From assembly GCA_965205015.1 (NCBI GenBank), contig OZ242029.1:4032001-4096000 (forward strand): DNA of 64,000 bases. Reading direction: 5' to 3'. Below are positions 5,613 to 34,524 of the stretch, piece by piece. The stretch is from Candidatus Poribacteria bacterium (lineage in GTDB: Bacteria > Poribacteria > WGA-4E > WGA-3G). The position numbers and the translations under genes are program-made. How positions within the stretch are numbered: the stretch's first letter is position 1; each line of letters opens with the position of its first letter. The notes below the pieces were generated by a model, which worked only from the letters and a program-made list of their open reading frames with translations, was not told the DNA's origin and ran no database searches.

Positions 5613-5662
5613 GGTTGAACGATGTGGGCATGGGTGGACAAGCAGCAATCGTAAGATTTTTT

Positions 5663-5691
5663 TTGACACATCCTGCTTTTTGTGATATAAT
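5663..5691 (+). promoter_or_regulatory. Consensus sigma70 promoter with extended -10, upstream of the multicopper oxidase
   Basis: TTGACA (5663-5668), 17 bp, TATAAT (5686-5691), with TG at 5683-5684. Confidence 0.8.
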
Positions 5692-5729
5692 TCAATGCAA
5701 ATTTAACCCTGTGAGGTTTTTAGTATCTG

Positions 5730-13433: not shown

Positions 13434-13586
13434 TAGAACAAATAAGCCCGTTAGTTTCCGCTATATTCACGCTTTTGATTCATCTAAGCGAAATTCGAGA
13501 TGTGAAAGTGCAGGAATATAGGGGAATTGAGCGGTTCTGAAGTGAATAAAAGCATGTTCTTTATTCTGGCAGTTTGGAGAAGAAGT

Positions 13587-14207
13587 ATGTCCGTTGCAAC
13601 CCTTACAGCTACTATGGAAACCTATTCGGAGATAAGCAAGACAGAAGAATTGGATCTCGCACAGGAACGTGAGATTGTTTTGCGCTGTCAAAAAGGTGAT
13701 GCCGATGCAATGGGAACCCTTGTGATTCAATATCAACACTGGGTTTACAATATCGCTTACGGTATGCTCGGTCATCACCAAGACGCTGAAGATGTCGCGC
13801 AAGATGCCTTCCTCTCCGCATGGGAAAATATTGAGAAATTCCAATTCCGTTCCCGATTTTCCACATGGCTCTACCGTATCGTCAAGAATAAGTGTCTCAA
13901 TCATATTGATCAGTATCAACGCCGAAAAACCGACCCGACAGAGATTGACGATTCACAGCCGTGGGTCCCGCTTGATACAGTGACCCCTGAAGAGGAGGCA
14001 CTCCGCACCGAACAGAAAGAAATCGTTCACGCAGCCCTCGCAAAACTCAAGGACAGTCATAGAGAGATCTTGGTGCTGAGAGAACTACGAGATCTACCTT
14101 ACGAAGAAATATCTGAAATTCTGGGATGCACACTGGGACGCGTTAAATCCCGGTTACATGAAGCCCGAAAGGCACTCAAAAAAGAACTGGAGCGAGTTGA
14201 GTGGTAA
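13587..14207 (+). CDS. ECF sigma factor, RpoE/SigW-like
   Basis: GGAGAAG RBS before ATG 13587; DAEDVAQDAF, FSTWLYRI and YEEISEILGCTLGRVKSRLHEAR. Confidence 0.9.
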   Translation: MSVATLTATMETYSEISKTEELDLAQEREIVLRCQKGDADAMGTLVIQYQHWVYNIAYGMLGHHQDAEDVAQDAFLSAWENIEKFQFRSRFSTWLYRIVKNKCLNHIDQYQRRKTDPTEIDDSQPWVPLDTVTPEEEALRTEQKEIVHAALAKLKDSHREILVLRELRDLPYEEISEILGCTLGRVKSRLHEARKALKKELERVEW

Positions 14208-14237
14208 CACCTTTTACCGCTATCCTCGATTGGAGAT

Positions 14238-15011
14238 ATGAACCATCGACGAATCCAAGAGGAATTGTCAGCCTACTTAGATAACGAATTAAGCCCGAAC
14301 AGGCATAAGCAGATTGAAGCACATTTACGTACCTGCGACGAGTGTTCCGAGATGCTACTAACGTTCAAAAAGAACCGTCAGAGAGTCGCAAACATCGCGC
14401 ACCCGGTACCATCGACACTCAAGGACGGCGTGATGGCAAAAATACACACGCAGTTTCAAGATGAACTATCCGCTTATTTAGATGGCGAATTAGAACCGAC
14501 GATGCGCGATCGGATGGAAGCGCATCTCCACGCCTGCGACGAGTGTTCCGAGATGCTGGCGGCGTTCCGTCAAAATCGCGATCGGATCAAAGCACTTGAA
14601 CATCCTGCGCCGCCATCCATTGAAAACGCAGTGATGGCGAAAATATGCCAGCAAGCCTCCCAGGCACGCAAAGAGAAACCTACTCGGACCGGATGGATAC
14701 CTGATATAGGGCGATGGATACCTGACCTTGGACGCTGGTTTTTCCGGCCCCTTACGGCAGGCGCGACCGGTATTCTAACACTCGTCCTGATTTTCGGTGC
14801 CCTCTACTTTTACAATCCCACTGGATCGCAATACGAGGAGACACTCGATTTCTACTTCGGGCTCCACACCGAACAATTAGTCGATAACACATTTGATTTG
14901 AACACTGGGATCTCCTTTAGTACAACATCTTCGGAAGAGGCTCTCTCCACAGAAACTACCGATGACGCTGAACTGTTTCTCAACCTCTATCTGGAGGATG
15001 TAGGGAATTAA
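14238..15011 (+). CDS. Membrane anti-sigma factor with two tandem zf-HC2 (ZAS) domains
   Basis: LSAYLDNEL..HLRTCDEC and LSAYLDGEL..HLHACDEC; TM segment GILTLVLIFGALYFY. Confidence 0.85.
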   Translation: MNHRRIQEELSAYLDNELSPNRHKQIEAHLRTCDECSEMLLTFKKNRQRVANIAHPVPSTLKDGVMAKIHTQFQDELSAYLDGELEPTMRDRMEAHLHACDECSEMLAAFRQNRDRIKALEHPAPPSIENAVMAKICQQASQARKEKPTRTGWIPDIGRWIPDLGRWFFRPLTAGATGILTLVLIFGALYFYNPTGSQYEETLDFYFGLHTEQLVDNTFDLNTGISFSTTSSEEALSTETTDDAELFLNLYLEDVGN

Positions 15012-15042
15012 ATTACGCAATAGGAACTAAACCGGTGCATCT

Positions 15043-16152
15043 ATGCGAATATATTCATATTTTATCCTTCGCAGGGGCTTGAAACCTAAATACTATCTCT
15101 CTTGTATTCCAATTTTAGCTTTTCTGCTCTGGTCACCTCAACCCCTTTTAGCTGATGCCAGTACGCTTGAACACATTGCAGCAGCCGAGCATGAAGTTAA
15201 CTACGTCGGCGTTCGTTTGAAGACGTTCATTTCATCAAGAGGCACCCGCACCTTCGAAGAACTCGTCATCCATAAAGCCCCAGATATTTTCTACGGGAAG
15301 GAACTCTCTGTGGTAGGTGAACGAAAATCATTCGGAGGTCCGCACGATGACGAACGTCGGGATGAAAGTCGCAGAGACAATCGCAGAAGAGACCGGGATG
15401 ACAGCCGCAGAAATGGGCGAGACAGGGATCACGCACATCACAAATGGCATCAGGTGAGACGTCTATTTTCCGAAGAAGAGGTCGAACTGATTGCCCGAAA
15501 CTACAACTTGGAAAAATCGCCGTCTACAGAAGAAATCGCGAATTACGAAACGGATCTGCTAACAATTACCCCCAAATTCGCTGGCAGACCCACACATCGG
15601 ATTTTCTTTGCGCGTAAAAACGGGGTTATCCTGCGGATAGAAACCCTCGACGCCGAAGGTGTACTTCGGGCAATGTCCGTCTATACCCGCATTAGTTTTG
15701 ATCCTGAAATCATAGAACGCAAATGGGAAGTCTTTGAAAAAGAGATAGCACCTGAACCACAACGGAGTCATTCAATTTCGCTTCCGGAAGCAGAAAAGAT
15801 CCTCAAAACCAAACCCATCCAGCCTGAATACTTGCCACCGGGATTCCAGCTGCAGGATATTCATGGTATAAAAGACAAAAAGAACACCATTCATCTGATT
15901 TATACGGATGGCTTGCTACGTTTCTCCATATTTGAAACAACGGACAAACGGGCGCGTCGTGGCAGTGACAGACGCAGAGGATCAGATGTCATTGAAATTA
16001 ATGGCACGCGTGTCCATAAATACCAGCGCGGACCGACATACGCCTTCAGTTGGTCGAGCGCGGATATACACTGTTTCTTGTTCGGCGCAATGCCGCCTAC
16101 CGAAATGCAGAAAGTCGTAGAATCCATCATTCACAAAACAAAGAAAGAATAA
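15043..16152 (+). CDS. RseB/MucB-like periplasmic sigma-E regulatory protein
   Basis: Third gene of the sigma/anti-sigma operon; signal peptide; VNYVG, NGVILRIE, YTRISF, PEYLPPGF and HLIYTDGL..FSIFE. Confidence 0.7.
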   Translation: MRIYSYFILRRGLKPKYYLSCIPILAFLLWSPQPLLADASTLEHIAAAEHEVNYVGVRLKTFISSRGTRTFEELVIHKAPDIFYGKELSVVGERKSFGGPHDDERRDESRRDNRRRDRDDSRRNGRDRDHAHHKWHQVRRLFSEEEVELIARNYNLEKSPSTEEIANYETDLLTITPKFAGRPTHRIFFARKNGVILRIETLDAEGVLRAMSVYTRISFDPEIIERKWEVFEKEIAPEPQRSHSISLPEAEKILKTKPIQPEYLPPGFQLQDIHGIKDKKNTIHLIYTDGLLRFSIFETTDKRARRGSDRRRGSDVIEINGTRVHKYQRGPTYAFSWSSADIHCFLFGAMPPTEMQKVVESIIHKTKKE

Positions 16153-17766: not shown

Positions 17767-17910
17767 GAAATCCGCAGAAATACGCAGAAATACGCAGAAA
17801 TACGCAGAAATACGCAGAAACACCCAAGCAAAGACACCAAGCAAAGACACCAAGCAAAGACACCAAGCAAATACCCCTATCAATACGCAGAAATACCCAA
17901 GCAAAAACAC
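17767..17910. repeat. Compound tandem repeat: (GAAATACGCA) x~5, then (CACCAAGCAAAGA) x~4, then one degenerate copy of each
   Basis: Read directly from the sequence; intergenic, immediately after the SDR stop. Confidence 0.95.
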
Positions 17911-17956: not shown

Positions 17957-18086
17957 TTACCCTTCATTACATTTTCCACAATTTTTACAGAATTAGGCAA
18001 CCGTTTTGCCCTTAACTCGCGTCATTGTATATTACAAAATGGTCCATCTGGTGTTGATACATAGAAGGTACCAGCGTCGAAGGTAT

Positions 18087-18102
18087 TGCACAAATTTGTG
18101 CA
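18087..18102. promoter_or_regulatory. Perfect 16-bp palindrome TGCACAAATTTGTGCA, candidate operator
   Basis: Self-complementary; 150 bp upstream of the ECF fusion start. Confidence 0.5.
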
Positions 18103-18150
18103 TTCGCGAAGGGACTTCAAAAAACTCGGATTCCTTTCTTTTTCACATTT

Positions 18151-18178
18151 TGAACCTTTTTTATTCCAAGATTTCGTC
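18151..18178 (+). promoter_or_regulatory. Candidate ECF promoter TGAACCTTTT..CGTC
   Basis: Same TGMACCYTTT-N16-TC geometry as the sites at 31277 and 34423. Confidence 0.45.
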
Positions 18179-18251
18179 TTAAAATAATAGAGGGTGCAAA
18201 TCGTATGCCCTGCTTAGTTTTGCGAGATTTTGCATTTGATTAGGAGGCACC

Positions 18252-20408
18252 ATGAAAAGGGAAGACGATGTTCAATTGATTTACAGAATATTATCGGGCG
18301 ATGCAGCAGCGTTTCGCGTTTTAGTCGAAAAGCACCAAAAGGGTGTTCACGCGCTTGTGTGGCGAAAGATCGGGGACTTTCACTATGCTGAAGAGATCAC
18401 ACAAGACACCTTCCTACGAGCCTACAAGAAGCTCTCAACGCTCAAAGATCCGAATCAGTTTACTGGATGGCTTTATGTCATCGCAAATCGACTCTGTATT
18501 GATTGGCTCCGAAAGCAAAAGTTTACAATGCAATCGTTGGAGGATACACCTGTGGAGGAAATTGACAAGGCCGCTTATGCCCGTCATATAGCCGAGCAAC
18601 GACAGACGGAGACCGCCGAGAATCACCGCGAAATAGTGAAAAAACTCTTGGCAAAGCTGCCAGAGAGTGAACGCACAGTTGTGACGCTCTACTATCTCGG
18701 CGAGATGACGACTAAAGAGATTAGTAAATTCTTGGGGGTGTCCGTGGATACGATTAAGACTCGGCTCCGACGCGGACGAAAACGCTTACAGGAACAACAG
18801 GTAGAACCTTTAGTTTCTGAAACACTCGGAACTATTCAATTCCCCGCACACATAACCGAGCGGATCATGCAGCAGGTCGCCGACATGGGTCCGATACAAC
18901 CGCCGGTTGGTAAACCGTTGCTACCGTGGATAGTTTTCGGCACAGTTGTCGTTGTGGTTATGTCAATGCTCGGTGTGAGTAACCAGTATCTTGCTCGGTT
19001 TCAGAAACCGTATAGTTTTGAGGCGGAAGCTGAGCCGACTATCGAAATCATTGATGCGTTTATCGTTCTTGATATTGCGGCAAAACCATCTGTGCGCAAT
19101 CAAGCTGGACGGGCTGATACCGCCCAAGAAAGCAGAGGTATCGGCACCCAAACCTCCCACACGACCGCAGCATCTCTGACATCAGGGGATACCGTCGCGT
19201 TTGCCCGAACAGCAGAACTCAAAATCGAGCGGACGCTGACCCAAGCGGATGGCTTAGCATCCGACACGGTTCTTACTGTTTTTGAAGATAGCCACGGCAC
19301 GGTGTGGTTTGGAACGACTGACGGACTCACCCGTTATGACGGCAAGAATTTTCAAACTTTCACAACGGAAGATGGATTGGCAAAAAACACGATAGGGCTT
19401 ATCTTTGAAGATCAGCGAGGCATGCTTTGGTGTGCTGATGGTGTACTCTCAAGTTTTCTGGAGAGAGGAAAGCCTATAGACATGTCATGGATGGAAACGC
19501 CATTGAGTGAACTCGATATCGCACTGCGTAACGAAACGCCCGAAGGAATGACAAGACGTATTCCATCAAAAGGCGTGAGTCGCTACGACGGCGAAAAGTT
19601 CAGGGTTTTTACAACCGCCGACGGGCTCGCTGGTGATACCGTTAAGGATATCTTTGAAGACGAAACTGGTACGCTTTGGTTCGCGACATCATTTGGTGTG
19701 AGCCACTATGATGGAGAAACTTTCAAAACTATCACTGTGGACGGACCGATGGGCATGGACGTATTACCTGACTGGTGGAGTCAAATCACGGCAGTTGCCC
19801 AGGATGCAGCAGGCAATTTTTGGTTCGGCAGCACTGCTGGAATTACCTACTATAGTACCGAAACGTCCCAATTCCGTCATTTTGCTATTGACCCGGATTT
19901 CGCCGCTTTCCAAGAGATGGGGCAAGTACGAAGCGCACACATAACCGACCTGCAGTTCGATGCGAACGACAACCTTTGGATGAGTCAAAGTCGTGGAGGT
20001 GATAAGAATAGCGGCATTCGTCAGTTCAATGGCAAAAAACTGGCGATTTTTCCGCAAAGTGAGCAACTTCCGATGAATAGCGTTGACAACATTATGCAGG
20101 ATAGGAACGGTAATCTTTGGTTTACGGGTGTTAAGAATGATGTGAATCAGCCGCCAATGGTACACGAAACCGAAGATAGTGTTAGCATGGTTTTTCCTGA
20201 AACTGAATCCAGCATAAGTGTATACGATGGCAAAACCTTCAAAAACTTTAACACCGCCGACGGTCTGCCGAGTAACCGCGTCTGGTCGGTATTTGAAGCC
20301 AGCGACGGCAAACTTTGGTTCGCTACCGATAAAGGTGTTGGCGTAGGCGTTTATACGCCTGCCCCAGCACACAAAAAAAATAACTTGATACCTTTGTTGA
20401 ATAATTAG
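18252..20408 (+). CDS. ECF sigma factor fused through a TM helix to a two-component-regulator (Reg_prop) beta-propeller domain
   Basis: AGGAGG RBS; sigma2 (AEEITQDTF, FTGWLYVIA), sigma4 (EISKFLGVSVDTIKTRLRRGR); TM LLPWIVFGTVVVVVMSMLG; repeats DGLASDTV..IFED..G.LWFAT. Confidence 0.9.
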   Translation: MKREDDVQLIYRILSGDAAAFRVLVEKHQKGVHALVWRKIGDFHYAEEITQDTFLRAYKKLSTLKDPNQFTGWLYVIANRLCIDWLRKQKFTMQSLEDTPVEEIDKAAYARHIAEQRQTETAENHREIVKKLLAKLPESERTVVTLYYLGEMTTKEISKFLGVSVDTIKTRLRRGRKRLQEQQVEPLVSETLGTIQFPAHITERIMQQVADMGPIQPPVGKPLLPWIVFGTVVVVVMSMLGVSNQYLARFQKPYSFEAEAEPTIEIIDAFIVLDIAAKPSVRNQAGRADTAQESRGIGTQTSHTTAASLTSGDTVAFARTAELKIERTLTQADGLASDTVLTVFEDSHGTVWFGTTDGLTRYDGKNFQTFTTEDGLAKNTIGLIFEDQRGMLWCADGVLSSFLERGKPIDMSWMETPLSELDIALRNETPEGMTRRIPSKGVSRYDGEKFRVFTTADGLAGDTVKDIFEDETGTLWFATSFGVSHYDGETFKTITVDGPMGMDVLPDWWSQITAVAQDAAGNFWFGSTAGITYYSTETSQFRHFAIDPDFAAFQEMGQVRSAHITDLQFDANDNLWMSQSRGGDKNSGIRQFNGKKLAIFPQSEQLPMNSVDNIMQDRNGNLWFTGVKNDVNQPPMVHETEDSVSMVFPETESSISVYDGKTFKNFNTADGLPSNRVWSVFEASDGKLWFATDKGVGVGVYTPAPAHKKNNLIPLLNN

Positions 20409-20518
20409 GGAACCCTTATAACACTTACGCAATAATGTTGACATAGACATCCAAAAATACTAATGAAGATATCTCAACAATTAGATGGCTTCATATTTCT
20501 GATAGAAGGAGTTTTCCA

Positions 20519-21742
20519 ATGCGAAAACGATTACATACCATATGGCTGGCTGTATTTCTGCTATTATTGCATTGGACGGTATCCATTGCCCACGCAGCAG
20601 AACTCAAAATCGAAAAGACCCTAAACGAAACGGATGGGTTGGCATCTAACACAGTGCTTACCATTTTTGAAGATAGTCGCGGTAATATGTGGTTCGGAAC
20701 AACTGATGGACTCACTCGTTATGACGGAGAAAATTTTCGGACCTTCACAACAGAAGATGGATTATCACGTAACACAACGGGACTTATCTTTGAAGACCGA
20801 CATGGAATGCTCTGGTTTGCGAATGGTGTAGTCTTAAGTACCTTGGAAAGAGGGAAGCCAATAGACATGTCGTACATGGCAATGCCTTTGAGTGAACTTG
20901 CAAAAGAATTAGAAAACGAAATTCCAACAGAAACACTGACCCCTACTCCACCAAGAGGTGTCAGTCGTTATGATGGAGATATGTTCAGAATCTTTACGCC
21001 TGCCGATGGTCTCCTCCGAGATAACGTCAAGGACATACTTGGGGACAAAACAGGAATGCTTTGGTTCGCGACATCGTCTGGGGTGAATCGCTACGAGGCC
21101 GAAAGTTTTACCGGTATGGCCTTCAATGGTCCCATGGGGATGGATATATTACCCGACTGGTGGAATCAAGTTACGACAATTACACAGGATACAGCAGGAA
21201 ACTTCTGGTTTGGGAGTACTGCCGGCATCACCTACTACGATGTCCAAACGTCTGATTTCCGATACTTTGATGTAAATTTCATGCCTTTCCAAGAGATGGG
21301 GAAGGCGCAAATCGGACATGTGACAGATCTGCAGTTTGATGTAAAGGATAATCTCTGGATTAGCCGAGAAGGAATGGGTGATGAAAGGAGTGGTATTCGT
21401 CGCTACGATGGCGAAGTATTAGTTTCCTTTCCACAAAGTGAAGCACTTCCGATGAATAGTGTTCACAATATTCTATTAGATACCAGCGGCAACCTGTGGT
21501 TTGCGGGTACCAAAAAGCTACCGCCGACGCTGCATGACACCGAGGATAGTCTTAGCATGACTTATGCTGAAGCCGGCGTTGGTGTAAGTGTCTATAACGG
21601 TGAGACCTTTCAAAACTTTAACACAGATGACGGTCTACCGGGCAACAAGGTCTGGTCTGTCTTTGAGGATAGCAGGGGCAAACTCTGGTTCGCCACGGAT
21701 GCTGGTGCCGCAGTTGGCGTTTATCTACCCTCTGAAAAATAG
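20519..21742 (+). CDS. Secreted Reg_prop beta-propeller protein, copy 1
   Basis: AAGGAG RBS; signal ending SIAHA-AELKIEK; Reg_prop repeats; paralog of the sigma C-terminus and of 25803-27038. Confidence 0.9.
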   Translation: MRKRLHTIWLAVFLLLLHWTVSIAHAAELKIEKTLNETDGLASNTVLTIFEDSRGNMWFGTTDGLTRYDGENFRTFTTEDGLSRNTTGLIFEDRHGMLWFANGVVLSTLERGKPIDMSYMAMPLSELAKELENEIPTETLTPTPPRGVSRYDGDMFRIFTPADGLLRDNVKDILGDKTGMLWFATSSGVNRYEAESFTGMAFNGPMGMDILPDWWNQVTTITQDTAGNFWFGSTAGITYYDVQTSDFRYFDVNFMPFQEMGKAQIGHVTDLQFDVKDNLWISREGMGDERSGIRRYDGEVLVSFPQSEALPMNSVHNILLDTSGNLWFAGTKKLPPTLHDTEDSLSMTYAEAGVGVSVYNGETFQNFNTDDGLPGNKVWSVFEDSRGKLWFATDAGAAVGVYLPSEK

Positions 21743-21833
21743 CTGTCGGCCGTCAACTGTCGCTGTTTGTAAAAAAGAAACAATTCTGAGACGCTTGCGT
21801 CTTTGCGGGTTGCTACTAAAGGAGACAAAACAG

Positions 21834-24800
21834 ATGAAAAAGATTTTTCAAAACATCACTTGTTTTTGGATGGCGATTCTCTTTGGAATCCCTTTCCTGT
21901 TGATCGGTTGTGTTAAAAAGGAGATTACTCGCCAAGCGGATTGGGAAACCCATTTTATGGACCTCCACTTTGCGGATGCCAAAAACGGATGGATCGTCGG
22001 GCATGGAGGCTGGATTCTCCATACCGTTGATGGCGGGGAAAGTTGGGAGAAACAGACAGTCAATACGACCGAAGATTTCAAATCGGTTTATTTCACAAAC
22101 CTCCGTAACGGTTGGGCAGTTGGAGACAAGGGGGTAATTGCGATTACAGACGATGGCGGCCGGCATTGGACAGTCCAAAAAACTGAGGTTTCTATGCTGC
22201 TTTTGGATGTCTTTTTCCTCAACGCAAAGATCGGTTGGATTGCTGGACAGGATGGGATGCTCTACACAGAAAACGGTGGAAAAACATGGCATCATCAAGA
22301 TGTAAGTGACTTTCAAATTAAGGGAGTTTTCTTTGTAAATAAAGATCGCGGGTGGACAGTCGGGGACTATGACCGAATCTTTGTTACCACTGACAGCAGT
22401 GATACGTGGCGGAGACAGGATAACCTCGTTAAAACGGATACCACGTCGACGGTTTGTAACCTTCACACCGTATTTTTTGTCAATCCTTACAAGGGATGGT
22501 GCGGGGGCACAGATGGCACGATTTTTCATACCACCAATGGTGGCGCAGAATGGAGCACCCAGGTGAGTAAACTGCCGCCGATTTATGGACATGTAGGTCC
22601 GATTGTGAACAACTTCCATTTTCTCAGCGAGGATTACGGTCTCGTCGTCGCACAGGGTGGATTTATTAATCGAACGGAGGACGGCGGAAACGACTGGCAA
22701 TTGGTAGAGAGTCCCACAAAAAACGATTTGATGGGGGTTCAGTTTATAAGCCATCAACAGGCGTGGGCTGTCGGTATGAACGGAACACTCTTGCACTCAG
22801 AAGATGGCGGTGTAACCTGGGACATGAAAAGCGGCACGACAGCCGATGCCCTACAGAGCGTCGCCTTTGCGGATGCAAACCGTGCGGTTGCCGTTGGAGA
22901 GAAGGGCACAATCACAACAAGCGATGACAGTGGTAAGACCTGGACGGATATAGAGATGGACACGTGGCACCGCATCCGGAACTTATCTTTTGTCACCGAC
23001 AAGGAAGGCTGGGCGGTTGGCGATGGTGGACTCATTCTCCACACGACCGATGCAGGTCAAACATGGGAACGGCAAACCAGCGGGTGGTGGTATACGCTGA
23101 ATGCCCTCCATTTCATTAACCCTCAGAAAGGGTGGATCGTTGGCGATTTGGGGACTGTGCTGCATACTGCGGACGGCGGTGAAACGTGGGTCCAACAAGT
23201 ACCGCGCTACTTCCACGAAATGATAAAGGGCATCTTTTTCCTCGATGAGAAAGAAGGCTGGGTGGTCGGATGGCCCGGTATTATTTTTCACACTATAGAC
23301 GGCGGTCGAACTTGGAAACGGCAGAACAGCAAGAGTTACAATGAACTCTACGCCGCTTACTTCATTGACAGACATACCGGCTGGGTGGTCGGACAACTCG
23401 GTGAGATTCTATACACACTCGACGGTGGAAAAACCTGGAAATTTCAACGGAGTGGGACGCAGGCGAATCTGAACAAAGTCTACTTTGCCGATGCAAATCA
23501 CGGGTTAATTGTTGGAGATGAAGGTGTTATTTTGACCACTGTCAATGGTGGGGTGACCTGGGAATCACAGAGGAGTGGTACATCTAACGACCTCTACAGT
23601 TTTTCGCTTTCTCCGGATGGTATTCTTGCTGTCGGTGAAGATGGTATCGCAATGCGATATTCTGTGGATACGGAGAAGTTTATCGTCGAGTTACCGCCTG
23701 CCGCGCAGGAGATAGAAGCAGCGGCACAACTCGAAGAAGCCGTTGAATATCATTGGGAGATTATCCGATCAGGAGCCTCGCAGACGTATTTTACCGATAC
23801 TTATTTCCTGTCGGCTATGCGCGGATGGACGGTCGGCCACGGGGGTGTTATTTTAAATACAATAGATGGCGGCAAAACCTGGTATCCACAACAAAGTGGT
23901 GTAACGGAGGATTTGCAGCGTATCGTCTTCATTGATGAGAAACACGGCTGGATCGGGGGCGATAGGATCGTGCTGCGGACCGAAAATGGCGGTGAGACAT
24001 GGCAGATAATCCGTGAAGGTTTGGAATCTATCTCCTATATCAGTGCGATGCACTTTATTAATCCGCAAGTGGGTTGGCTCGGTGCGAATGATGCACAAAC
24101 GCTTCACACAAGCGATGGCGGCAAAACCTTCCGATTGCAGAAAACAGGGCTTGGGAGCATGCCTATTAGCGACTTACACTTTATCAATACCGAAGAGGGG
24201 TGGGCAGTAATATCACGCATGATGAGAGAAGGTAGCTACATTCTGCATACCGTGGACGGTGGTGATAACTGGCAGGTCCAAACCAGAACACATAAATATG
24301 GTGTCGGTATTCATTTTATGAATGAAACTGCTGGTTGGGTGGTCCTGGCGAATGGGGCATCACTTCTCACAACAGATGGCGGCGCGACATGGAAACAGAC
24401 ACTGCCCCAAATGTCCGATGGCACTCGACTCCACGCCGTGAAATTTCGTAATCACACGGAAGCTTGGGGTATAGCGAATGACAAGAGACTTCTCATTACG
24501 CACAACCAAGGCAAGCGTTGGGAGATACTAAATGACTCGCTTGTTAACCCACGTTCAACCGTTGGCGATGAAAGCTGGGTTCACCAAATGGCAAAGGAAC
24601 AATTTCTCCCCGCCTTCAACGTGACGAACGCGCACATCCTTGAGGATGGACACGGTTGGATAGTCGGTGTGATTGTGGCATCACCTCGCACTACCACTGA
24701 ACCGGGTATTGATATTGACGATCAAGCGCAAGATACGATAGGCCAGATTTATGGCACAACAGATTTCGGAAAAAACTGGGACCACCGACTCGGCAAACAG

Positions 24801-25655
24801 CGGAATACCCTCCGTGATGTGTTGTTTATTGATGGGCAACACGGTTGGATTGCCGGGGATAACGGGGCCTTATTTTCGACTGAAGATGGCGGAGAGACTT
24901 GGCAATCTTTAGAGAGTGATACCATCCAACGTATTGTCGATGTCCACTTCACCAGTCTTGAACCGAAATGGGGATGGCTGATGCTCCGGGACGCAACATT
25001 ACTTTACACGCAGGATGGATCGCAATGGTCAGCACAAAACAAGCAAGAACGATTCTCACACCAGAACTCGTTCGCCATAAATGAGGTCGCATTCGGTAAC
25101 TTTTCTGAAGGATGGGCTGTCGGAGAGGGGGGTGATATTATACACAATCCAGACGGCGGCACAATTTGGGCACCGCAACGCACCTCAACCAGTAAGAACC
25201 TCACGAGCATTGATATGAAATTCGCACCCCTCGGTTGGGCAGTTGGGAGCAATGGTGTAACCCAGCGAACCGTCAATGGCGGCGAATATTGGAAGTTCCA
25301 TGAAACCGATACCGGTTCCGATCTGAACGCAGTGTCATTCATAACAAAACGCAAGGGGTGGGCAGTTGGACGGGGTGGAATTATCCTATCTACCACTGAT
25401 GGGGGGTTCACGTGGACATCAGAAGCAAGCGGCGTTAACCACACCCTTTACGATATTCTACCACTCTCTGAACAGGAAATCTACGCTGTCGGTGCCTCTG
25501 GAACTATCATTCGCTCGACAGATGGCGGAAAAACGTGGGAACCCGAGCATACCAGGACCAGTAAAAACTTGTATGCAATCACGCAGGTCAAAGATGGGGG
25601 GTCCCTCTGGGTGGTTGGGCAATTAGGTGTTGTGATGCGGCACTCCATGCAATAA
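21834..25655 (+). CDS. Giant YCF48/BNR(Asp-box)-repeat lipoprotein, copy 1 (~1273 aa)
   Basis: AAGGAG RBS before ATG 21834; lipobox FLLIG-C; many F.d...GW.VG..G.ILHT.DGG.TW repeats. Confidence 0.9.
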   Translation: MKKIFQNITCFWMAILFGIPFLLIGCVKKEITRQADWETHFMDLHFADAKNGWIVGHGGWILHTVDGGESWEKQTVNTTEDFKSVYFTNLRNGWAVGDKGVIAITDDGGRHWTVQKTEVSMLLLDVFFLNAKIGWIAGQDGMLYTENGGKTWHHQDVSDFQIKGVFFVNKDRGWTVGDYDRIFVTTDSSDTWRRQDNLVKTDTTSTVCNLHTVFFVNPYKGWCGGTDGTIFHTTNGGAEWSTQVSKLPPIYGHVGPIVNNFHFLSEDYGLVVAQGGFINRTEDGGNDWQLVESPTKNDLMGVQFISHQQAWAVGMNGTLLHSEDGGVTWDMKSGTTADALQSVAFADANRAVAVGEKGTITTSDDSGKTWTDIEMDTWHRIRNLSFVTDKEGWAVGDGGLILHTTDAGQTWERQTSGWWYTLNALHFINPQKGWIVGDLGTVLHTADGGETWVQQVPRYFHEMIKGIFFLDEKEGWVVGWPGIIFHTIDGGRTWKRQNSKSYNELYAAYFIDRHTGWVVGQLGEILYTLDGGKTWKFQRSGTQANLNKVYFADANHGLIVGDEGVILTTVNGGVTWESQRSGTSNDLYSFSLSPDGILAVGEDGIAMRYSVDTEKFIVELPPAAQEIEAAAQLEEAVEYHWEIIRSGASQTYFTDTYFLSAMRGWTVGHGGVILNTIDGGKTWYPQQSGVTEDLQRIVFIDEKHGWIGGDRIVLRTENGGETWQIIREGLESISYISAMHFINPQVGWLGANDAQTLHTSDGGKTFRLQKTGLGSMPISDLHFINTEEGWAVISRMMREGSYILHTVDGGDNWQVQTRTHKYGVGIHFMNETAGWVVLANGASLLTTDGGATWKQTLPQMSDGTRLHAVKFRNHTEAWGIANDKRLLITHNQGKRWEILNDSLVNPRSTVGDESWVHQMAKEQFLPAFNVTNAHILEDGHGWIVGVIVASPRTTTEPGIDIDDQAQDTIGQIYGTTDFGKNWDHRLGKQRNTLRDVLFIDGQHGWIAGDNGALFSTEDGGETWQSLESDTIQRIVDVHFTSLEPKWGWLMLRDATLLYTQDGSQWSAQNKQERFSHQNSFAINEVAFGNFSEGWAVGEGGDIIHNPDGGTIWAPQRTSTSKNLTSIDMKFAPLGWAVGSNGVTQRTVNGGEYWKFHETDTGSDLNAVSFITKRKGWAVGRGGIILSTTDGGFTWTSEASGVNHTLYDILPLSEQEIYAVGASGTIIRSTDGGKTWEPEHTRTSKNLYAITQVKDGGSLWVVGQLGVVMRHSMQ

Positions 25656-25729
25656 TGAAGTTTAGAACGCAGACAATATACACAGAGCGTATCTCACATT
25701 GATGCGCGCTGAAGTCTAACACAGGCGAT

Positions 25730-25748
25730 TATAGTAAAGCCCACAATT
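25730..25748 (+). repeat. Solitary left end of the TATAGTAAA shell element
   Basis: TATAGTAAAGCCCACAATT resembles the left ends at 27059, 40470 and 43513; no matching right end seen. Confidence 0.4.
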
Positions 25749-25802
25749 TGCGCGTTTAACGCTAATATTCTAATCATAACGCTAATGAAAGGGGTTATCT
25801 CA

Positions 25803-27038
25803 GTGAAAAAACACTCGTGTTTAACAACCTTCGTTTTACTACTATTGTTAAACTGGATAGTATCCGTTGCTCACGCAGCAGAACTTAAAATCGAAAAGAC
25901 GCTCACCGAAAGTGACGGTTTGGCATCTAACACAGTGCTCACCGTTTTCGAGGACAGCCACGGTAATATATGGTTCGGAACAACTGATGGACTCACCCGT
26001 TATGACGGAAACAATTTCCAAACCTTCACGACGGAAGATGGATTGGTGCAGAACACGATAGGTCTTATCTTTGAAGACCAGCGAGGAATCCTCTGGTTCG
26101 CTGGTGGTGTGCTTTCAAGTGTTCCGGAAAGAGGAAAACCGATGGACATGTCTTGGATGGAAACGCCATTAAGCGAACTCGATATCACGCCGCATGACGA
26201 ACCACCCGAAGGAATGACGAGGCGTATTCCATTAAAAGGCGTGAGCCGCTACGACGGACACGAATTCAGAATCTTTACGACTGCCGACGGCCTCGCCGGT
26301 GATACCGTTAAGGATATCTTTGAAGACGAAGCCGGTACGCTTTGGTTCGCAACAGGGTTCGGCGTGAGTCGCTACGACGGTGAAAATTTCGACACGCTCA
26401 TGGCGGACGGACCTATAGGGATGTTTACATTACCTGAGGCATGGAACGCGGTTGAGGCAATCGCACAAGATACCGCTGGAAATTTTTGGTTCGGAAGCCA
26501 AGCGGGTATCAGTTACTACAATATCCAAAGGTCTCATTTCCGTTATTTTGCTGTTGATCCGGATTTCACACCTTTCCAAGAGATGGGGCAAGCACGGAAC
26601 GCTCATATAACCGATCTGCAGTTCGATGCGGAGGAAAACCTCTGGATGAGCCAAGATGATACAGACGAGGAATATGTCGGCATTCGTCAATACAACGGCA
26701 AAAAACTGACGATTTTTCCACAAAGTGAAGCACTTCCGATGAATAGCGTTAACAACATCATGCAGGATAGTAAAGGTAACCTCTGGTTTACGGGTGTTAA
26801 GAAACTACCTCCCAAGATGCATGAAACCGAAGACAGTGTTAGCATGATTTTTCCTGCAGTTGAATCCGGTGTAAGTGTATACAATGGCAAAACGTTCCAA
26901 AATTTTAACAAAGACGACGGTCTGCCGAGCGATCGTGTTTGGTCGGTATTTGAGGACAGCCGCGGCAAACTCTGGTTCGCCACGGATGCCGGTGCCGCAG
27001 TTGGGGTTTATCTTCCATCTCAAAACTCGGACAACTAA
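25803..27038 (+). CDS. Secreted Reg_prop beta-propeller protein, copy 2 (GTG 25803, or ATG 25785)
   Basis: Signal ending SVAHA-AELKIEK; same repeat architecture as copy 1. Confidence 0.9.
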   Translation: MKKHSCLTTFVLLLLLNWIVSVAHAAELKIEKTLTESDGLASNTVLTVFEDSHGNIWFGTTDGLTRYDGNNFQTFTTEDGLVQNTIGLIFEDQRGILWFAGGVLSSVPERGKPMDMSWMETPLSELDITPHDEPPEGMTRRIPLKGVSRYDGHEFRIFTTADGLAGDTVKDIFEDEAGTLWFATGFGVSRYDGENFDTLMADGPIGMFTLPEAWNAVEAIAQDTAGNFWFGSQAGISYYNIQRSHFRYFAVDPDFTPFQEMGQARNAHITDLQFDAEENLWMSQDDTDEEYVGIRQYNGKKLTIFPQSEALPMNSVNNIMQDSKGNLWFTGVKKLPPKMHETEDSVSMIFPAVESGVSVYNGKTFQNFNKDDGLPSDRVWSVFEDSRGKLWFATDAGAAVGVYLPSQNSDN

Positions 27039-27058
27039 TCAATACTACAAAAATCCTT

Positions 27059-27177
27059 TATAGTAAAACCCGTAATTACTTATACACTAACACAAGGGCG
27101 AGGATACAATCCTCGCCAGCGGTGGTGGGGTGTTTGTTCCCTGACGAACTGTAAACATATTTTTGGATTTTACTATA
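27059..27177. mobile_element. MITE-like element (119 bp), ends TATAGTAAAA/TTTTACTATA, internal hairpin GGCGAGGAT-ACA-ATCCTCGCC
   Basis: 10-bp perfect terminal inverted repeat with a longer imperfect extension; hairpin at 27097-27117; homologous to 43513-43629. Confidence 0.75.
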
Positions 27178-27218
27178 ATATTCCTAAGGCAATGGCAATA
27201 ACGAAGGGGGCAAAACAG

Positions 27219-30200
27219 ATGAAAAAGATTCTTCAAAACATCACTTGTTTTTGGATGGCGATTCTCTTTGGAATCCCTTTCCTGTTGATCGGTTGTGTTA
27301 AAAAAGAGATTACCCGCAAAGCCGATTGGGAGACCCATTTCCAAGGCATCCATTTTGTGGATGCCAAGCACGGATGGATCGTCGGGCATCAAGGCTGGAT
27401 TCTCCATACCGCTGACGGGGGCGTGAATTGGGAAAAACAGACGGTGAACACAAATGAGGATTTCAAAGCCGTTTATTTCACAAACGTGCGCAACGGCTGG
27501 GCAGTTGGGGACAAGGGGTTAATCGCCACGACTGACGATGGTGGACGGCATTGGACGCTACAGAACAGCGGAAGCCATGCTTTGCTTTTGGATGTTTTTT
27601 TCGTCAATTCGAAGCTGGGGTGGGTTGTCGGACGCGATGGCGCCCTTTACACAAAAAATGGTGGAAAAACGTGGCATCATCAGGCGATAAGCGAGTTTGG
27701 ACTTGGGGGCACCTGGTTCGTGAGCAAATATCGCGGCTGGACGGTTGGCGACTATAACCGGAGTTTTTTGACAAATGATGGAGGACAGACTTGGCACAGA
27801 CAGGGGAGTTTGGTGAGAGAAGACCAAATGCTTTTCAACGTCCAGACAGTCCATTTTATCGGTGATTCTAAGGGATGGTGCGGTGGCACAGATGGAACCA
27901 TCTTTCACACCACCACAGGCGGCACACAATGGCAACAACAGGTGAGTCGATTTCCGCTGGTGATGGGGCATATCGCTCCAACTGTTAATGACATTGATTT
28001 CATGAACGATGACCAGGGTGTAATGGTCGCTCAGGGTGGATTTATCAATCGAACAGAGGATGGTGGAGACAATTGGCAATTGGTGGAAAGTCCGACCAAG
28101 AATGACTTAACCGGTGTTCAATTCATAAGTCCAAAAGAGATATGGGGGGTCGGTTTAAATGGTACGCTGCTGCACTCGATTGATGGGGGGACGACGTGGG
28201 ACATGAAAAGCGGCACGACAGCAAACGACCTGAACAGTGTTGCGTTTGCAGACGCAGACCGCGCGGTTGCTGTTGGTGAACATGGTGCTATCACGATGAG
28301 CCAAGACGGTGGTAAAACTTGGACCGACCTGGATATGGATGTTTGGCATCGGATTCGGAACCTATCTTTTGCCACTGACAGGGAAGGTTGGGCAGTTGGA
28401 GATGGCGGACTCATCCTCCACACCACCGATGCAGGTCAAACGTGGGAACGGCAAACCAGCGGTTGGTGGTATACCCTCAATGCCCTTCATTTCATCAATT
28501 CAAAAAAGGGCTGGGTCGTCGGAGATTTAGGCACAGTGCTTCATACAGTGGATGGTGGAGAAACGTGGATTCAACAAGCACCCCGCTACTTTCATGAGAT
28601 GATTAAAGGGATCTTTTTCCTTAACGAGGAAGAGGGCTGGGTGGTCGGATGGCCCGGTATTATTTTTCAGACACAGGATGGTGGGATCACCTGGAAACGA
28701 CAGAATAGCAACAGTTACAACGAGCTCTATGCCGCCTACTTTGTTGACAGACACACCGGCTGGGTTGTTGGACAATTCGGCGAAATTTTACATACCTTAG
28801 ATGGCGGCAAAACGTGGAAGTTTCAACGGAGCCGAACACAAGCACATCTCAACAAAGTCTATTTTGCGGATGCAAATCACGGGTTAATCGTCGGCGATGA
28901 AGGCGTGATTTTAACCACCACCAATGGAGGCGTGACGTGGGAGTTGCAGAAAAGCGGCACGTCTAACGATCTTTATAGTTTCTCGCTTTCCCCCGATGGT
29001 ATCCTTGCTGTCGGTGAAGGCGGGATTGCGATGCGATACTCTGTGGATACGGAGCAGTTCACTGTCGAGTTGCCGCCTGCTGCGCAAGAGATGGAAGCGG
29101 CGTCCGAATCGGTGGAACCGGTTGAATATTATTGGGAGGTTGTTCGTCAGGGAAACTGGCGCTCCCATTTCACTGATATCTATTTCCTGTCGGCACAGCA
29201 GGGGTGGGCAGTCGGGGGTGGCGGCATCATTTTACATACTGTAAATGGCGGCAAAACGTGGCAACCCCAACAAAGTAGTGTCACAAAGGATTTGCAGCGG
29301 ATTCTCTTTATTGATAAAAACTACGGTTGGGTTACCGGTCAGGGTGTGTTACTACGAACGGAAAACGGGGGTGAGACATGGCAAGCGATTCATGAGGGGC
29401 TACAAAACTTCCGAAGTATCCGGGCGATCTACTTCGTCAACCCCAAGGAGGGTTGGATCGGGGTCGATAAGGGGCAAATCTTGCGCACCAGCGACGGCGG
29501 CAAAACCTTCCGCTTGCAGAAAACCGGGACAACGAATCAGCCAATCGCGGACCTACATTTTATTGATAGCAAAGAGGGGTGGGCGGTTACCCCCCAACGG
29601 CGAGAGGGTGGATTGATTCTGCACACCCTTGATGGGGGGGATTATTGGCAAATTCAGGCACGGACACATCAACGGGGCGTCGGTGTCCATTTTTCAAATG
29701 CCCAATCGGGTTGGGTGGTTATGAAAGATGGGAGTTCCCTGCTCACGACAGATGGCGGGGAGACATGGGAACAAACCTCGAGAATAGATTTCGGAATCCG
29801 TCTCCATACCGTGAAATTCCGCAATCACACTGAGGCGTGGGGATTTATTGAGGGGGAAGCAATTTTCACGACGCAAAATCGAGGCAAAAGCTGGGAAACA
29901 GTCCGTTTTTCGCTTGGAACTGAAGCTGCTGACACCGAGGCACAAAGTTGGATAGAACAGATGATAGAGGAACGTCCCTTCAATTTGATGCCCCAAATTA
30001 CCAACGCACATTTCTTGGCGGATGGCAGAGGTTGGGCAGTCGGCGGCGTGCTGGTTCAAGAGGGGGCTCCCGATGGGAAGGATTTTGACAGTCTTAATAA
30101 GACACAAGCGTCTGGCGGTCAGATTTATTATACGACAGATGGTGGGAAGACTTGGGCGCATCAATTTGGTGAATCGCTTGATGACTTACGCGATGTCCTG

Positions 30201-31058
30201 TTTCTTGATGAACAGCGAGGGTGGGTTGTCGGAGATAATGGAGCCTTATTTTCAACAGCAGATGGCGGAGAAAGTTGGAGGCGTTTGAGGAGTGGTACCA
30301 CCCAACGCATTGTCGATGTCCACTTTGTGAGTCGTAATCCGGAGTGGGGGTGGGCGATGACCCGCAATGGGTCCTTGCTTTACACTGTTGACGGTGAGGA
30401 TTGGTCAACAAACTTGCCAGATGGGCTTGCAAGCGACATTCTGGATAAGCGGGAACTCCGTCCGGGTGCTGCGACTTCCATAAACGATGCTGCCTTTGGC
30501 AAGTTTTCTGAGGGATGGGCTGTCGGTCAGAGTGGAGAGATTTTCCACAATCAGGATGGCGGTTTAATTTGGACACTTCAACGCACTTCAACCGGAAAAG
30601 AGCTCATGGGTATCGATATGAAATTCGCACCGCTCGGCTGGGCGGTTGGAGCCAACGGTGTCATCCAGCGAACTGTCAACGGCGGTGACTATTGGAAATT
30701 TCACGAGACCGACACGGGCTATGATCTCTATGCGGTATCCTTCATCAGTAAACGGAAAGGGTGGGCAGCTGGGCGGGGTGGGATTCTTTTGTACACTTCT
30801 GACGGTGGATTTACTTGGACACCACAGTTGAGTCGTCTACCAGAATCCCTGTACGATATTTTGGCACTCTCTGAACAGGAACTTTACGCTGTCGGCGCCT
30901 CTGGAACCATTATTCATTCCGCAGACGGTGGGGAAACGTGGGAGCGGGAGCATACCGAAATTGACAATGATCTGTACGCAATCACGCAGGTCAAAGAGGG
31001 TAATACACTGTGGGTCGTTGGGCAAGGCGGCGTTGTGCTGCGGCGTCCTAAACGCTGA
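27219..31058 (+). CDS. Giant YCF48/BNR-repeat lipoprotein, copy 2 (~1279 aa)
   Basis: Near-identical signal/lipobox to copy 1; collinear repeats. Confidence 0.9.
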   Translation: MKKILQNITCFWMAILFGIPFLLIGCVKKEITRKADWETHFQGIHFVDAKHGWIVGHQGWILHTADGGVNWEKQTVNTNEDFKAVYFTNVRNGWAVGDKGLIATTDDGGRHWTLQNSGSHALLLDVFFVNSKLGWVVGRDGALYTKNGGKTWHHQAISEFGLGGTWFVSKYRGWTVGDYNRSFLTNDGGQTWHRQGSLVREDQMLFNVQTVHFIGDSKGWCGGTDGTIFHTTTGGTQWQQQVSRFPLVMGHIAPTVNDIDFMNDDQGVMVAQGGFINRTEDGGDNWQLVESPTKNDLTGVQFISPKEIWGVGLNGTLLHSIDGGTTWDMKSGTTANDLNSVAFADADRAVAVGEHGAITMSQDGGKTWTDLDMDVWHRIRNLSFATDREGWAVGDGGLILHTTDAGQTWERQTSGWWYTLNALHFINSKKGWVVGDLGTVLHTVDGGETWIQQAPRYFHEMIKGIFFLNEEEGWVVGWPGIIFQTQDGGITWKRQNSNSYNELYAAYFVDRHTGWVVGQFGEILHTLDGGKTWKFQRSRTQAHLNKVYFADANHGLIVGDEGVILTTTNGGVTWELQKSGTSNDLYSFSLSPDGILAVGEGGIAMRYSVDTEQFTVELPPAAQEMEAASESVEPVEYYWEVVRQGNWRSHFTDIYFLSAQQGWAVGGGGIILHTVNGGKTWQPQQSSVTKDLQRILFIDKNYGWVTGQGVLLRTENGGETWQAIHEGLQNFRSIRAIYFVNPKEGWIGVDKGQILRTSDGGKTFRLQKTGTTNQPIADLHFIDSKEGWAVTPQRREGGLILHTLDGGDYWQIQARTHQRGVGVHFSNAQSGWVVMKDGSSLLTTDGGETWEQTSRIDFGIRLHTVKFRNHTEAWGFIEGEAIFTTQNRGKSWETVRFSLGTEAADTEAQSWIEQMIEERPFNLMPQITNAHFLADGRGWAVGGVLVQEGAPDGKDFDSLNKTQASGGQIYYTTDGGKTWAHQFGESLDDLRDVLFLDEQRGWVVGDNGALFSTADGGESWRRLRSGTTQRIVDVHFVSRNPEWGWAMTRNGSLLYTVDGEDWSTNLPDGLASDILDKRELRPGAATSINDAAFGKFSEGWAVGQSGEIFHNQDGGLIWTLQRTSTGKELMGIDMKFAPLGWAVGANGVIQRTVNGGDYWKFHETDTGYDLYAVSFISKRKGWAAGRGGILLYTSDGGFTWTPQLSRLPESLYDILALSEQELYAVGASGTIIHSADGGETWEREHTEIDNDLYAITQVKEGNTLWVVGQGGVVLRRPKR

Positions 31059-31251: not shown

Positions 31252-31316
31252 ATAAAAATCCAGATTTTTCGCTTTATGCACCCTTTCCATTCTTAAACCG
31301 TATCATTAATTATAAA
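31252..31316 (+). promoter_or_regulatory. Conserved promoter module, copy 1
   Basis: ATAAAAATCCAGATTTTT + TTATGCACCCTTTCC-N11-GTATC..TTAATTATAAA; repeated at 34387-34463. Confidence 0.65.
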
Positions 31317-34386: not shown

Positions 34387-34463
34387 ATAAAAATTCAGGT
34401 TTTTGTTATTTTTTCTAAGTTATGCACCCTTTCCCTCTCAAAATAGTATCTTTTAATTATAAA
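34387..34463 (+). promoter_or_regulatory. Conserved promoter module, copy 2
   Basis: ATAAAAATTCAGGTTTTT + TTATGCACCCTTTCC-N11-GTATC..TTAATTATAAA. Confidence 0.65.
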
Positions 34464-34524
34464 CGAGCTCGAGTAACGTGAGTTTAAAAATAAAACGGAA
34501 ATTATATTGGAAAGGAATACCATC

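Follow-up and report, generated by a model that had tools for sequence, protein, structure and literature searches.

The subject of this analysis is a gene of a sponge symbiont, Candidatus Poribacteria bacterium, in a stretch of 64,000 nucleotides (assembly GCA_965205015.1, contig OZ242029.1, positions 4,032,001-4,096,000, forward strand), here called the window and numbered from its first letter. The gene encodes an extracytoplasmic function (ECF) sigma factor with one transmembrane (TM) helix, a linker and a Reg_prop beta-propeller. It belongs to a family of single-pass, membrane-tethered ECF sigmas that has expanded greatly and is seen here only in Poribacteria, and its propeller is a copy of the secreted Reg_prop proteins encoded behind it, joined to the sigma at their mature N-terminus. 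The body of sigma domain, TM helix and linker that is common to the family is called the chassis, and the domain beyond it the head. Five genes, all on the + strand, occupy 18252-31058 (sigma fusion, Reg_prop A, YCF48-1, Reg_prop B, YCF48-2); the genes and the parts of the sigma fusion are as follows.

18252..20408, + strand: membrane-tethered ECF sigma with Reg_prop ectodomain (718-aa open reading frame (ORF), Pfam domains, orthologs)
18321..18794, + strand: sigma-2 (residues 24-90) and sigma-4 (residues 127-181) (Pfam Sigma70_r2 and Sigma70_r4_2; AlphaFold2 (AF2) predicted local distance difference test (pLDDT) 80-92)
18804..18887, + strand: two cytoplasmic juxtamembrane helices, residues 185-193 and 199-212 (AF2 pLDDT ~80-88)
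18915..18980, + strand: single TM segment, residues ~222-243 (hydrophobic stretch read from the sequence)
18981..19106, + strand: conserved outer juxtamembrane linker, residues 244-285 (conservation over 106 chassis rows)
19107..19211, + strand: variable linker, residues 286-320, ending at the fusion junction (aligns with BNR-type paralogs up to the junction)
19212..20366, + strand: Reg_prop beta-propeller ectodomain, residues 321-705 (Pfam PF07494; AF2; fold match)
20519..21742, + strand: secreted Reg_prop protein A, 407 aa, predicted signal peptide 1-26 (ORF, Pfam, alignment)
21834..25655, + strand: giant YCF48/BNR-like lipoprotein 1, 1273 aa, lipobox L-I-G-C (start set by aligning the second copy)
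25785..27038, + strand: secreted Reg_prop protein B, 417 aa, predicted signal peptide 1-31 (ORF, Pfam, alignment)
27192..31058, + strand: giant YCF48/BNR-like lipoprotein 2, likely start 27219 (ORF, Pfam, alignment)

By BLASTP, sigma residues 321-718 are 75% identical to Reg_prop B over 384 aa (subject residues 32-412 of 417) and 64% identical to Reg_prop A over 384 aa; A and B are the sole other matches among all ORFs of the window, both with E = 0.0. The two free proteins have a basic n-region, a hydrophobic core and the residues A-H-A right before their common start A-E-L-K-I-E, cleavage being judged by the -3/-1 rule only, and the homology of the sigma propeller starts one residue past A-H-A of both signal peptides, with an accuracy of about 3 residues. 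The three residues before the junction are A-R-T in the window and A-R-A in relatives, and may be a relic of the A-x-A site. A signal-peptide relic farther upstream, for which the DNA alignment reaches 20-40 nt into the leader, was ruled out; this stretch is chassis in the protein alignment, because it aligns with BNR-type paralogs.

The fusion recurs in other assemblies. Reg_prop stands behind the same body in 25 of the best 120 protein clusters matching residues 1-320, and the junction F-[AP]-R-[TA] followed by A-E-L-[KR]-I-E was found in 22 of 24 Reg_prop-type protein clusters, the motif search failing for P0008 and P0026. Among related loci (prefix L), intact fusions are present in L001, L002, L003 and L081, that is, in three chromosome-level genomes and one metagenome contig. 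A DNA contig from a separate study covers 19067-20321 across the junction 19211/19212, with 8 differences in 1255 bases. The ratio of nonsynonymous to synonymous divergence (dN/dS) between the window and its orthologs is 0.11-0.14 in the sigma part, 0.19-0.33 in the juxtamembrane-TM-linker part and 0.17-0.31 in the propeller, values that indicate purifying selection on sigma, linker and propeller. Two observations on the same gene stand apart from these: synonymous divergence between the window and L003 is 0.40 at 18807-19211, vs 1.65-1.70 in the sigma and propeller parts, which suggests recombination among paralogs or a DNA-level constraint in the linker; and the window sigma ends (20382-20405) in …K-K-N-N-L-I-P-L-L-N-N, its orthologs in K-E-N or K-E-D.

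The sigma part is of ECF type (Pfam Sigma70_ECF; NCBIfam sigma70-ECF, 106 bits vs a cut-off of 42.9), and only ~35 residues lie between sigma-4 and the TM helix, which is preceded by a conserved G-K-P-L-L-P-W and followed by a linker of 77 aa in total (residues 244-320). The Reg_prop repeats (Pfam PF07494, E 2.6e-28) reach residue 705. Pfam found no anti-sigma domain inside the fusion (no zf-HC2; no FecR at E up to 0.01) and no kinase, receiver or DNA-binding domain of the hybrid two-component type. No anti-sigma gene adjoins it between 17748 and 20519, and the sole zf-HC2 protein (14238-15011) sits behind another ECF sigma, at 13527-14207. That second sigma opens a group at 13527-16152, in which a doubled zf-HC2 anti-sigma and a MucB/RseB-like protein with a long Arg/Asp-rich insert come after it. 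Both giant lipoproteins carry PSII_BNR/Sortilin/BNR families (Pfam); the first matches Pfam PSII_BNR at E 3e-125 and the NCBIfam Ycf48 model.

An earlier note, made from the letters of this DNA, had described most of this architecture, and much of it stands. The head is confirmed as a copy of the adjacent secreted proteins, at the identities given above; fusion at their signal-cleavage site is right within ~3 residues, the homology beginning at the mature N-terminus of A and B; the DNA strings quoted at the junctions are present in the window. One TM helix with a 77-aa linker was found where a TM helix and a ~75-aa linker behind sigma2/sigma4 had been stated, and the lack of an adjacent anti-sigma gene was borne out, the only zf-HC2 protein belonging to the sigma at 13527-14207. 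The assembly chimera that the note had weighed against its own account is contradicted by the recurrence of the fusion in independent assemblies.

The family was surveyed by a scan of one genome per species, from which the best 80 of at least 547 relatives were taken with 10-kb flanks; ORFs of these loci were called by a simple longest-frame rule, and chassis features were read from alignments of 12 and of 115 sequences. The titles of the best 80 loci name Poribacteria in 75 cases and an 'uncultured bacterium' in 5. Five complete Poribacteria genomes hold 48, 38, 47, 29 and 71 chassis matches (E up to 1e-30), nearly all of which span ~300 residues, and the 80 loci plus the window hold 107 chassis ORFs, often two or three in tandem. 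The window gene has the features of the family: K-P-L-L-P-W, the TM helix, the linker F-Q-K-P-Y-S-F ... E-P-T-I-E-I-I-D, and a head joined near residue 320. The common body extends to about that residue in the protein alignment, heads diverging beyond it, and the window chassis is 60-74% identical to its paralogs. Over 106 chassis rows, the mean frequency of the top residue is 0.80 in the linker 244-285, 0.80 in sigma-2 and 0.84 in sigma-4, and 0.52 in the variable linker 286-320. Among 1.84 billion representative proteins just 244 have the TM-linker module, which in most of them begins near residue 183-186, behind a sigma domain; in some it starts at residue 1-3, and these could be split forms or truncated gene calls.

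Heads of at least 200 residues are borne by 95 chassis ORFs and fall into eight ectodomain classes (Pfam names): BNR/Sortilin-like, 74/95; LRR + GHL15, 6/95; Kelch, 5/95; Reg_prop, 4/95; Peptidase_M16_C-like, 2/95; LRR, 2/95; WD40, 1/95; an unknown head of 230 aa, 1/95. Among the best 120 protein clusters, the remaining 95 match residues 1-320 at ~68-78% identity, are mostly near 1000 residues long, and bear Sortilin/BNR-type families, not Reg_prop. The generic sigma-TM-linker chassis that had been postulated is thus supported, with eight head classes on one body and 29-71 matches per complete genome.

Copies of the head in the neighbourhood were sought as non-sigma genes of the same locus, within ~10 kb, with an identity of 35% or higher along half or more of the head. 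Secreted neighbour copies accompany 10 of the 21 non-BNR members (Reg_prop 4/4; LRR + GHL15 3/6; Kelch 1/5; M16_C 1/2; the rest 0/4). A look-alike adjoins a single BNR-type member of 74, and in that case it is the latter half of a disrupted sigma gene (L020); within ~10 kb none was found for 73/74 BNR/Sortilin-type and 11/21 other-class members. Ten adjacent pairs were examined (seven loci plus two window pairs, A and B counted apart): the neighbour has a leader-like N-terminus (basic n-region, hydrophobic core) in 10/10, and in 9/10, covering four ectodomain types, the homology begins 0-3 residues from the end of the neighbour's leader and from the end of the chassis. Every full-length close paralog of the Reg_prop head in the whole genomes of four relatives sits in the same locus; distant paralogs in these genomes match over only ~60-80 residues at 40-49% identity. 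As a rule, therefore, the principle of the earlier note that the sensor equals the cargo fails, with a neighbour copy in 1/74 BNR-type and 10/21 other members. The comparison of heads with neighbours at chassis loci that it had proposed came out in its favour for 10/21 non-BNR members, with the junction at the mature N-terminus in 9/10 pairs, and against it for 73/74 BNR-type members. A sensor copied from its neighbour is what the window gene has, as do about half of the non-BNR members, and such pairs seem to record how new sensors arise.

The origin of the Reg_prop member was traced with trees and gene order. A tree of 89 chassis sequences places the four Reg_prop-type chassis in one clade (SH-aLRT 99) within a clade (96) that holds seven BNR-type bodies; BNR heads are spread over the entire tree, and all head classes need 8 changes, vs a least possible number of 6. 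On this tree BNR/Sortilin is the background head state and Reg_prop one derived clade. Gene order is dienelactone hydrolase - SDR - sigma::Reg_prop - Reg_prop - YCF48 in the window, L001, L002 and L081; it is SDR - Reg_prop - YCF48 - ABC-2 permease - DUF1080-like - BNR-type sigma in L010 and L014, which have no Reg_prop-type sigma; L013 has the downstream order of L010 and L014, its contig ending before the upstream side. Window positions 17990-18110 align with the DNA that precedes the free Reg_prop gene of L010 and L014, and beyond them the sigma with its own promoter is extra DNA (an insertion) relative to these two loci. Two loci hold remnants: in L004 the promoter and 44 N-terminal codons are joined to the last ~40 codons, and in L005 residues 1-267 are left plus a C-terminal remnant. 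The Reg_prop + YCF48 pair is independent of the sigma, because L010, L014, L004 and L005 keep it without an intact Reg_prop-type sigma, as does L013 in the part that its contig covers.

A tree of 24 propellers does not unite the sigma-borne ones, for which no fewer than two separate placements are required. Eight of the long type form a clade nested among free copies, six of the short type make up a clade that stands apart, and P0014 pairs as sister with the L003 free copy (support 100). These separate clades notwithstanding, sigma-borne propellers share one junction. Read from trees and synteny together, the BNR-type outer domain would have been replaced once by the mature part of the adjacent secreted Reg_prop propeller, and the captured propeller would later have been re-templated from the free copies by recombination between tandem paralogs.

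Promoter candidates of the window, scored where indicated with a position weight matrix (PWM) of the family motif, are the following.

18006..18033, + strand: sigma-70-like promoter candidate TTGCCC, 16 nt, TATATT (consensus match only; the stretch is common to sigma-less relatives)
18150..18184, + strand: ECF-type promoter variant, -35 TTGAACCTTT, 14-nt spacer, -10 TCGTCTTAAAA (PWM 23.2 bits)
31276..31310, + strand: canonical family promoter ATGCACCCTT, 14 nt, GTATCATTAAT, before an ABC-2 permease-like gene, 31428-32840 (PWM 29.8 bits)
34422..34456, + strand: canonical family promoter before a 3-keto-disaccharide-hydrolase-like (DUF1080-like) gene, 34507-35274 (PWM 29.2 bits)

The common upstream motif of the family is ATGCACCCTT, 13-14 nt, GTGTCTTTAAT. 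The 80 loci (1.47 Mb) contain 130 sites that score at least 20 bits, their shuffled sequence 0; chassis sigma genes follow 54 of these sites and other genes 65, and 11 have no called ORF behind them. The largest cluster of non-sigma target genes is ABC-2 permease-like (23/61); further targets are PD40 and WD40 propellers, a GT4 glycosyltransferase, an ABC exporter, patatin-like and DUF1080-like genes, and others. The site at 18150-18184 is the sole occurrence of the Reg_prop-type variant in the window, and this variant lies upstream of the orthologs or remnants in L001, L002, L004 and L005 only; the promoter at 31276-31310 is of the type of BNR-type paralogs, unlike the sigma fusion's own. The -35 element varies with the sigma-4 recognition helix (counts that include orthologs): N-T-x-K-S, GCACC[CT], 29/29 sites; [NH]-T-x-T-S, GCACGT, 11/12 sites; D-T-x-K-S, GCACCT, 4/4; D-T-x-K-T (Reg_prop type), GAACC[CT], 4/4; E-T-x-R-T, GTAACG, 2/2; K-T-x-H-S, no site of the family kind, 10/10. 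Since its own ECF-type promoter matches its sigma-4 recognition helix, the sequence of the sigma fusion points to positive autoregulation through the candidate promoter at 18150-18184.

Some further sequences were seen around these promoters. Five loci with helix K-T-x-H-S and no canonical promoter (L021, L030, L046, L052 and L059) have a common upstream word ending in GTTTCTGAAAT, which may mark another class of promoter. Ahead of the sigma promoter, at 18086-18102, sits a near-perfect palindrome, TTGCACAAATTTGTGCA, which is conserved in L010 and L014, has a near copy in L004, and could be an operator for some regulator. In L007, a DDE transposase ORF (5017-6228) has a canonical family promoter 281 nt upstream, as a chance neighbour or by insertion into a regulated site.

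No family-type promoter of at least 14 bits was found in the window before A, B or either YCF48-like gene, and a GGAACC-like word before gene A was rejected as a promoter, its spacing being wrong. The gaps between the five genes are 91-153 nt, on one strand, and a simple scan found no terminator-like site in the gaps sigma-A, A-YCF48-1 and YCF48-1-B. Co-transcription from the sigma promoter is plausible because of these short one-strand gaps and the lack of a terminator-like site in the first three, and the free Reg_prop and YCF48-like genes are probably co-transcribed with the sigma. The free genes may be the sigma's own cargo, as the earlier account had it; no family promoter precedes them, and they could be transcribed together with the sigma. 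RNA contigs (runs X15, X16 and X19), mostly at 90-95% identity and from related strains, cover parts of the sigma gene; none crosses the junction with 31 letters on each side. In the remaining gap, between B and YCF48-2, an element at ~27057-27180 with a hairpin, GGCGAGGATACAATCCTCGCC, has a depth of 5-8x its flanks in all four runs and many loose ends, and looks like a high-copy small repeat.

The AF2 model of the sigma fusion (mean pLDDT 68.7) is confident at residues 10-215 and in the propeller except for an insert at 400-439; residues 217-319, with the TM helix and the linker, have pLDDT below 50 and no predicted fold. By Foldseek, the sigma part matches SigW in complex with RsiW, and the head best matches the periplasmic heparin/heparan-sulphate sensor BT4663 (E 1e-14, ~394 aligned columns), with further matches to BT3049 and BT4673. 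The modelled juxtamembrane helices 185-193 and 199-212 might, as a guess, be a built-in inhibitor. When the sigma ectodomain was modelled together with free copy B, the result (score 0.00, mark 0.32) spoke neither for nor against binding. Because a single TM segment follows a large folded N-terminal domain and the donors have leaders, the propeller is plausibly extracytoplasmic, as had been proposed; a signal-peptide-like N-terminus is present in every donor checked. Outside the cell the propeller would bind a ligand, perhaps a glycan; this would lead to a first cut within or close to the conserved linker and a second in the membrane helix; and the sigma domain, thereby freed, would bind RNA polymerase. 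This release by proteolysis is modelled on IutY and RsgI, because these work in that way.

The explanation that we prefer, and in which we have moderate confidence as a whole, combines the chassis, the head swap, re-templating, autoregulation, co-transcription and ligand-triggered release. Several points weigh against it. Some surveyed loci are cut by contig ends, and the survey covers the best 80 of at least 547 loci only. The sigma has decayed in L004 and L005, so the gene is dispensable in some lineages. The charges flanking the TM segment do not by themselves decide topology, and the linker has no nameable cleavage motif, residues 244-320 being without Asn-Pro. The PWM derives from sites in front of 27 members of the family, so that hits at these members are circular, and the co-variation of helix and -35 element, through its orthologs, does not count independent events, the partition being clean across clades. 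The RNA contigs of X15, X16 and X19 reveal no start, no strand and no single transcript.

A different account of the likeness between sensor and neighbour, which we think unlikely, is that the sensor is kept alike to co-expressed free copies, which compete with it for a ligand or a partner (e.g. the YCF48-like lipoprotein) and so give titration feedback. A free Reg_prop gene and a YCF48-like giant do stand directly behind 5/5 intact Reg_prop-type sigmas (window, L001, L002, L003 and L081), neighbour copies with a like junction recur in four ectodomain types, and the free copies, having no family-type promoter, may be expressed from the sigma's promoter. The sigma-borne propeller was probably also re-templated from free copies at least once more, which keeps both alike, and the ~40-residue insert of the window copies is missing in L003 from the sigma propeller as well as from the free copy next to it; this comparison of short propellers has L003 as its single case, a metagenome scan having added one locus, L081, of the long type. 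Against such matching, 73/74 BNR-type and 11/21 other members have no neighbour copy, and tandem duplication, fusion and gene conversion yield neighbour likeness without selection for it. The propeller subfamily exists, within a genome, only at its own locus, so the best match of a Reg_prop head must be its neighbour. The sigma head and the free copies differ at 25-36% of residues, the L003 sigma propeller is not sister to its neighbour, and L010 and L014 hold the Reg_prop/YCF48 pair without a Reg_prop-type sigma.

Less probable still is that rearrangement in a tandem array produced the fusion as a neutral or decaying by-product, with a propeller that senses nothing and a sigma that is constitutive, membrane-bound or inactive. 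The internally deleted versions in two lineages (L004 and L005) and the varying copy number of the Reg_prop + YCF48 unit among relatives would fit; a dN/dS of 0.11-0.33 in sigma, linker and propeller alike, a junction conserved in 22/24 Reg_prop-type clusters, a promoter variant matched to the recognition helix, and a family kept at tens of copies per genome do not. An artefact of assembly or gene calling deserves next to no credence and was rejected: the architecture is the same in 25/120 clusters, in three chromosome-level genomes and one metagenome contig from independent assemblies, and in the junction-bridging contig.

Returning to the preferred explanation, its widest extension, which we put forward as a long shot, is that Poribacteria run 29-71 plug-and-play tethered sigmas, with one transmitter, distinct promoter channels that diverged along with the recognition helix, heads taken from secreted "eukaryote-like" repeat proteins (WD40, Kelch, LRR, BNR/Sortilin, Reg_prop; often the next-door gene), and recombination-matched free copies feeding back; if this were true, the cell would measure exactly what its secreted protein binds. 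Few fused membrane-spanning ECF sigmas are known; here a single body recurs 29-71 times in a genome, bears no fewer than 8 kinds of outer domain and has several promoter specificities that follow the recognition helix. For work on signal transduction, the family would offer a natural set of matched sigma/promoter pairs and of sensors swapped at a fixed junction; for sponge symbiosis, some "eukaryote-like" repeat domains would be sensor heads that control transcription.

Other features of the neighbourhood are an 817-aa protein at 10945-13398 with a CotH kinase domain, a lamin-tail domain and an EF-hand-like match; two short tandem arrays at 17770-17875, in the SDR-sigma gap, with units like CGCAGAAATA and like CACCAAGCAAAGA, the ORFs over which look spurious; and a paralog behind the ABC-2 permease-like gene (31428-32840). 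In L010, L013 and L014 a BNR-type chassis sigma stands behind the permease and DUF1080-like genes, and there is no such sigma at that position of the window.

A search of the open-access literature, with subscription journals and supplements outside its scope, found no description of the chassis family, and the words Poribacteria, propeller, BNR and WD40 are absent from the main text of the 2021 ECF re-classification (PMC7826278). As far as was searched within that literature, the fusion of the body to propeller or repeat heads, the family's size, a swap junction fixed at the mature N-terminus of the donors, and the co-variation of helix and -35 element are new. The claim that the sensor-equals-cargo principle had not been described holds in so far as the family was not found there, and is weakened by SigI/RsgI, which anticipates it in part.

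Several known systems share part of this design. IutY of Pseudomonas putida (ECF243) is a sigma/anti-sigma hybrid whose sigma domain is freed by regulated proteolysis (Prc, RseP), according to the passages cited from PMC8999054; like the sigma fusion, it combines an N-terminal ECF sigma, a segment crossing the membrane and an external sensing part in a single chain, but it includes an anti-sigma part of FecR type and acts together with a TonB-dependent receptor, whereas the sigma fusion is without FecR and has a propeller head. The actinobacterial groups ECF48, ECF52 and ECF53 (e.g. SCO4117) likewise join a sigma, TM helices and a long outer extension, which includes a carbohydrate-binding domain, and proteolytic activation has been proposed for them (passages of PMC8999054 and PMC5826349); they differ in a zinc-finger anti-sigma before the membrane, absent in the sigma fusion, and no comparable expansion or head-swapping is evident in the cited passages. 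ECF57 has a propeller-type (WD40-like) C-terminal extension on an ECF sigma, but the passage on it in PMC8999054 gives regulation by protein interaction and conserved cysteines and names no membrane helix or outer location. BT4663 (PDB 4a2l/4a2m), a Bacteroides hybrid two-component protein, also has an outer, ligand-binding Reg_prop propeller that controls transcription; it differs in having two propellers and further domains with a kinase/response regulator, where the sigma fusion has a single propeller on a sigma.

The closest likeness is to SigI/RsgI of Clostridium thermocellum, in which, according to the parts of PMC10328401 consulted, variable carbohydrate-sensing modules on a conserved N-terminal part control cellulosome genes. 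RsgI paralogs have a conserved cytoplasmic domain, a TM segment, a membrane-near periplasmic domain and variable C-terminal sensors; the polysaccharides sensed relate to the regulated secreted enzymes, and a membrane-near cleavage precedes intramembrane cleavage by RseP. The differences, as far as that source goes, are that sigma (of sigma-I type) and sensor are separate proteins there and an ECF sigma in one chain here; that RsgI self-cleaves at Asn-Pro, which is absent from the linker of the sigma fusion; and that there are nine paralogs there vs tens here, the RsgI modules not being copies of adjacent genes. Judged by analogy, the sigma fusion comes closest in its working to the RsgI idea in fused form, with variable heads on an unchanging transmitter.

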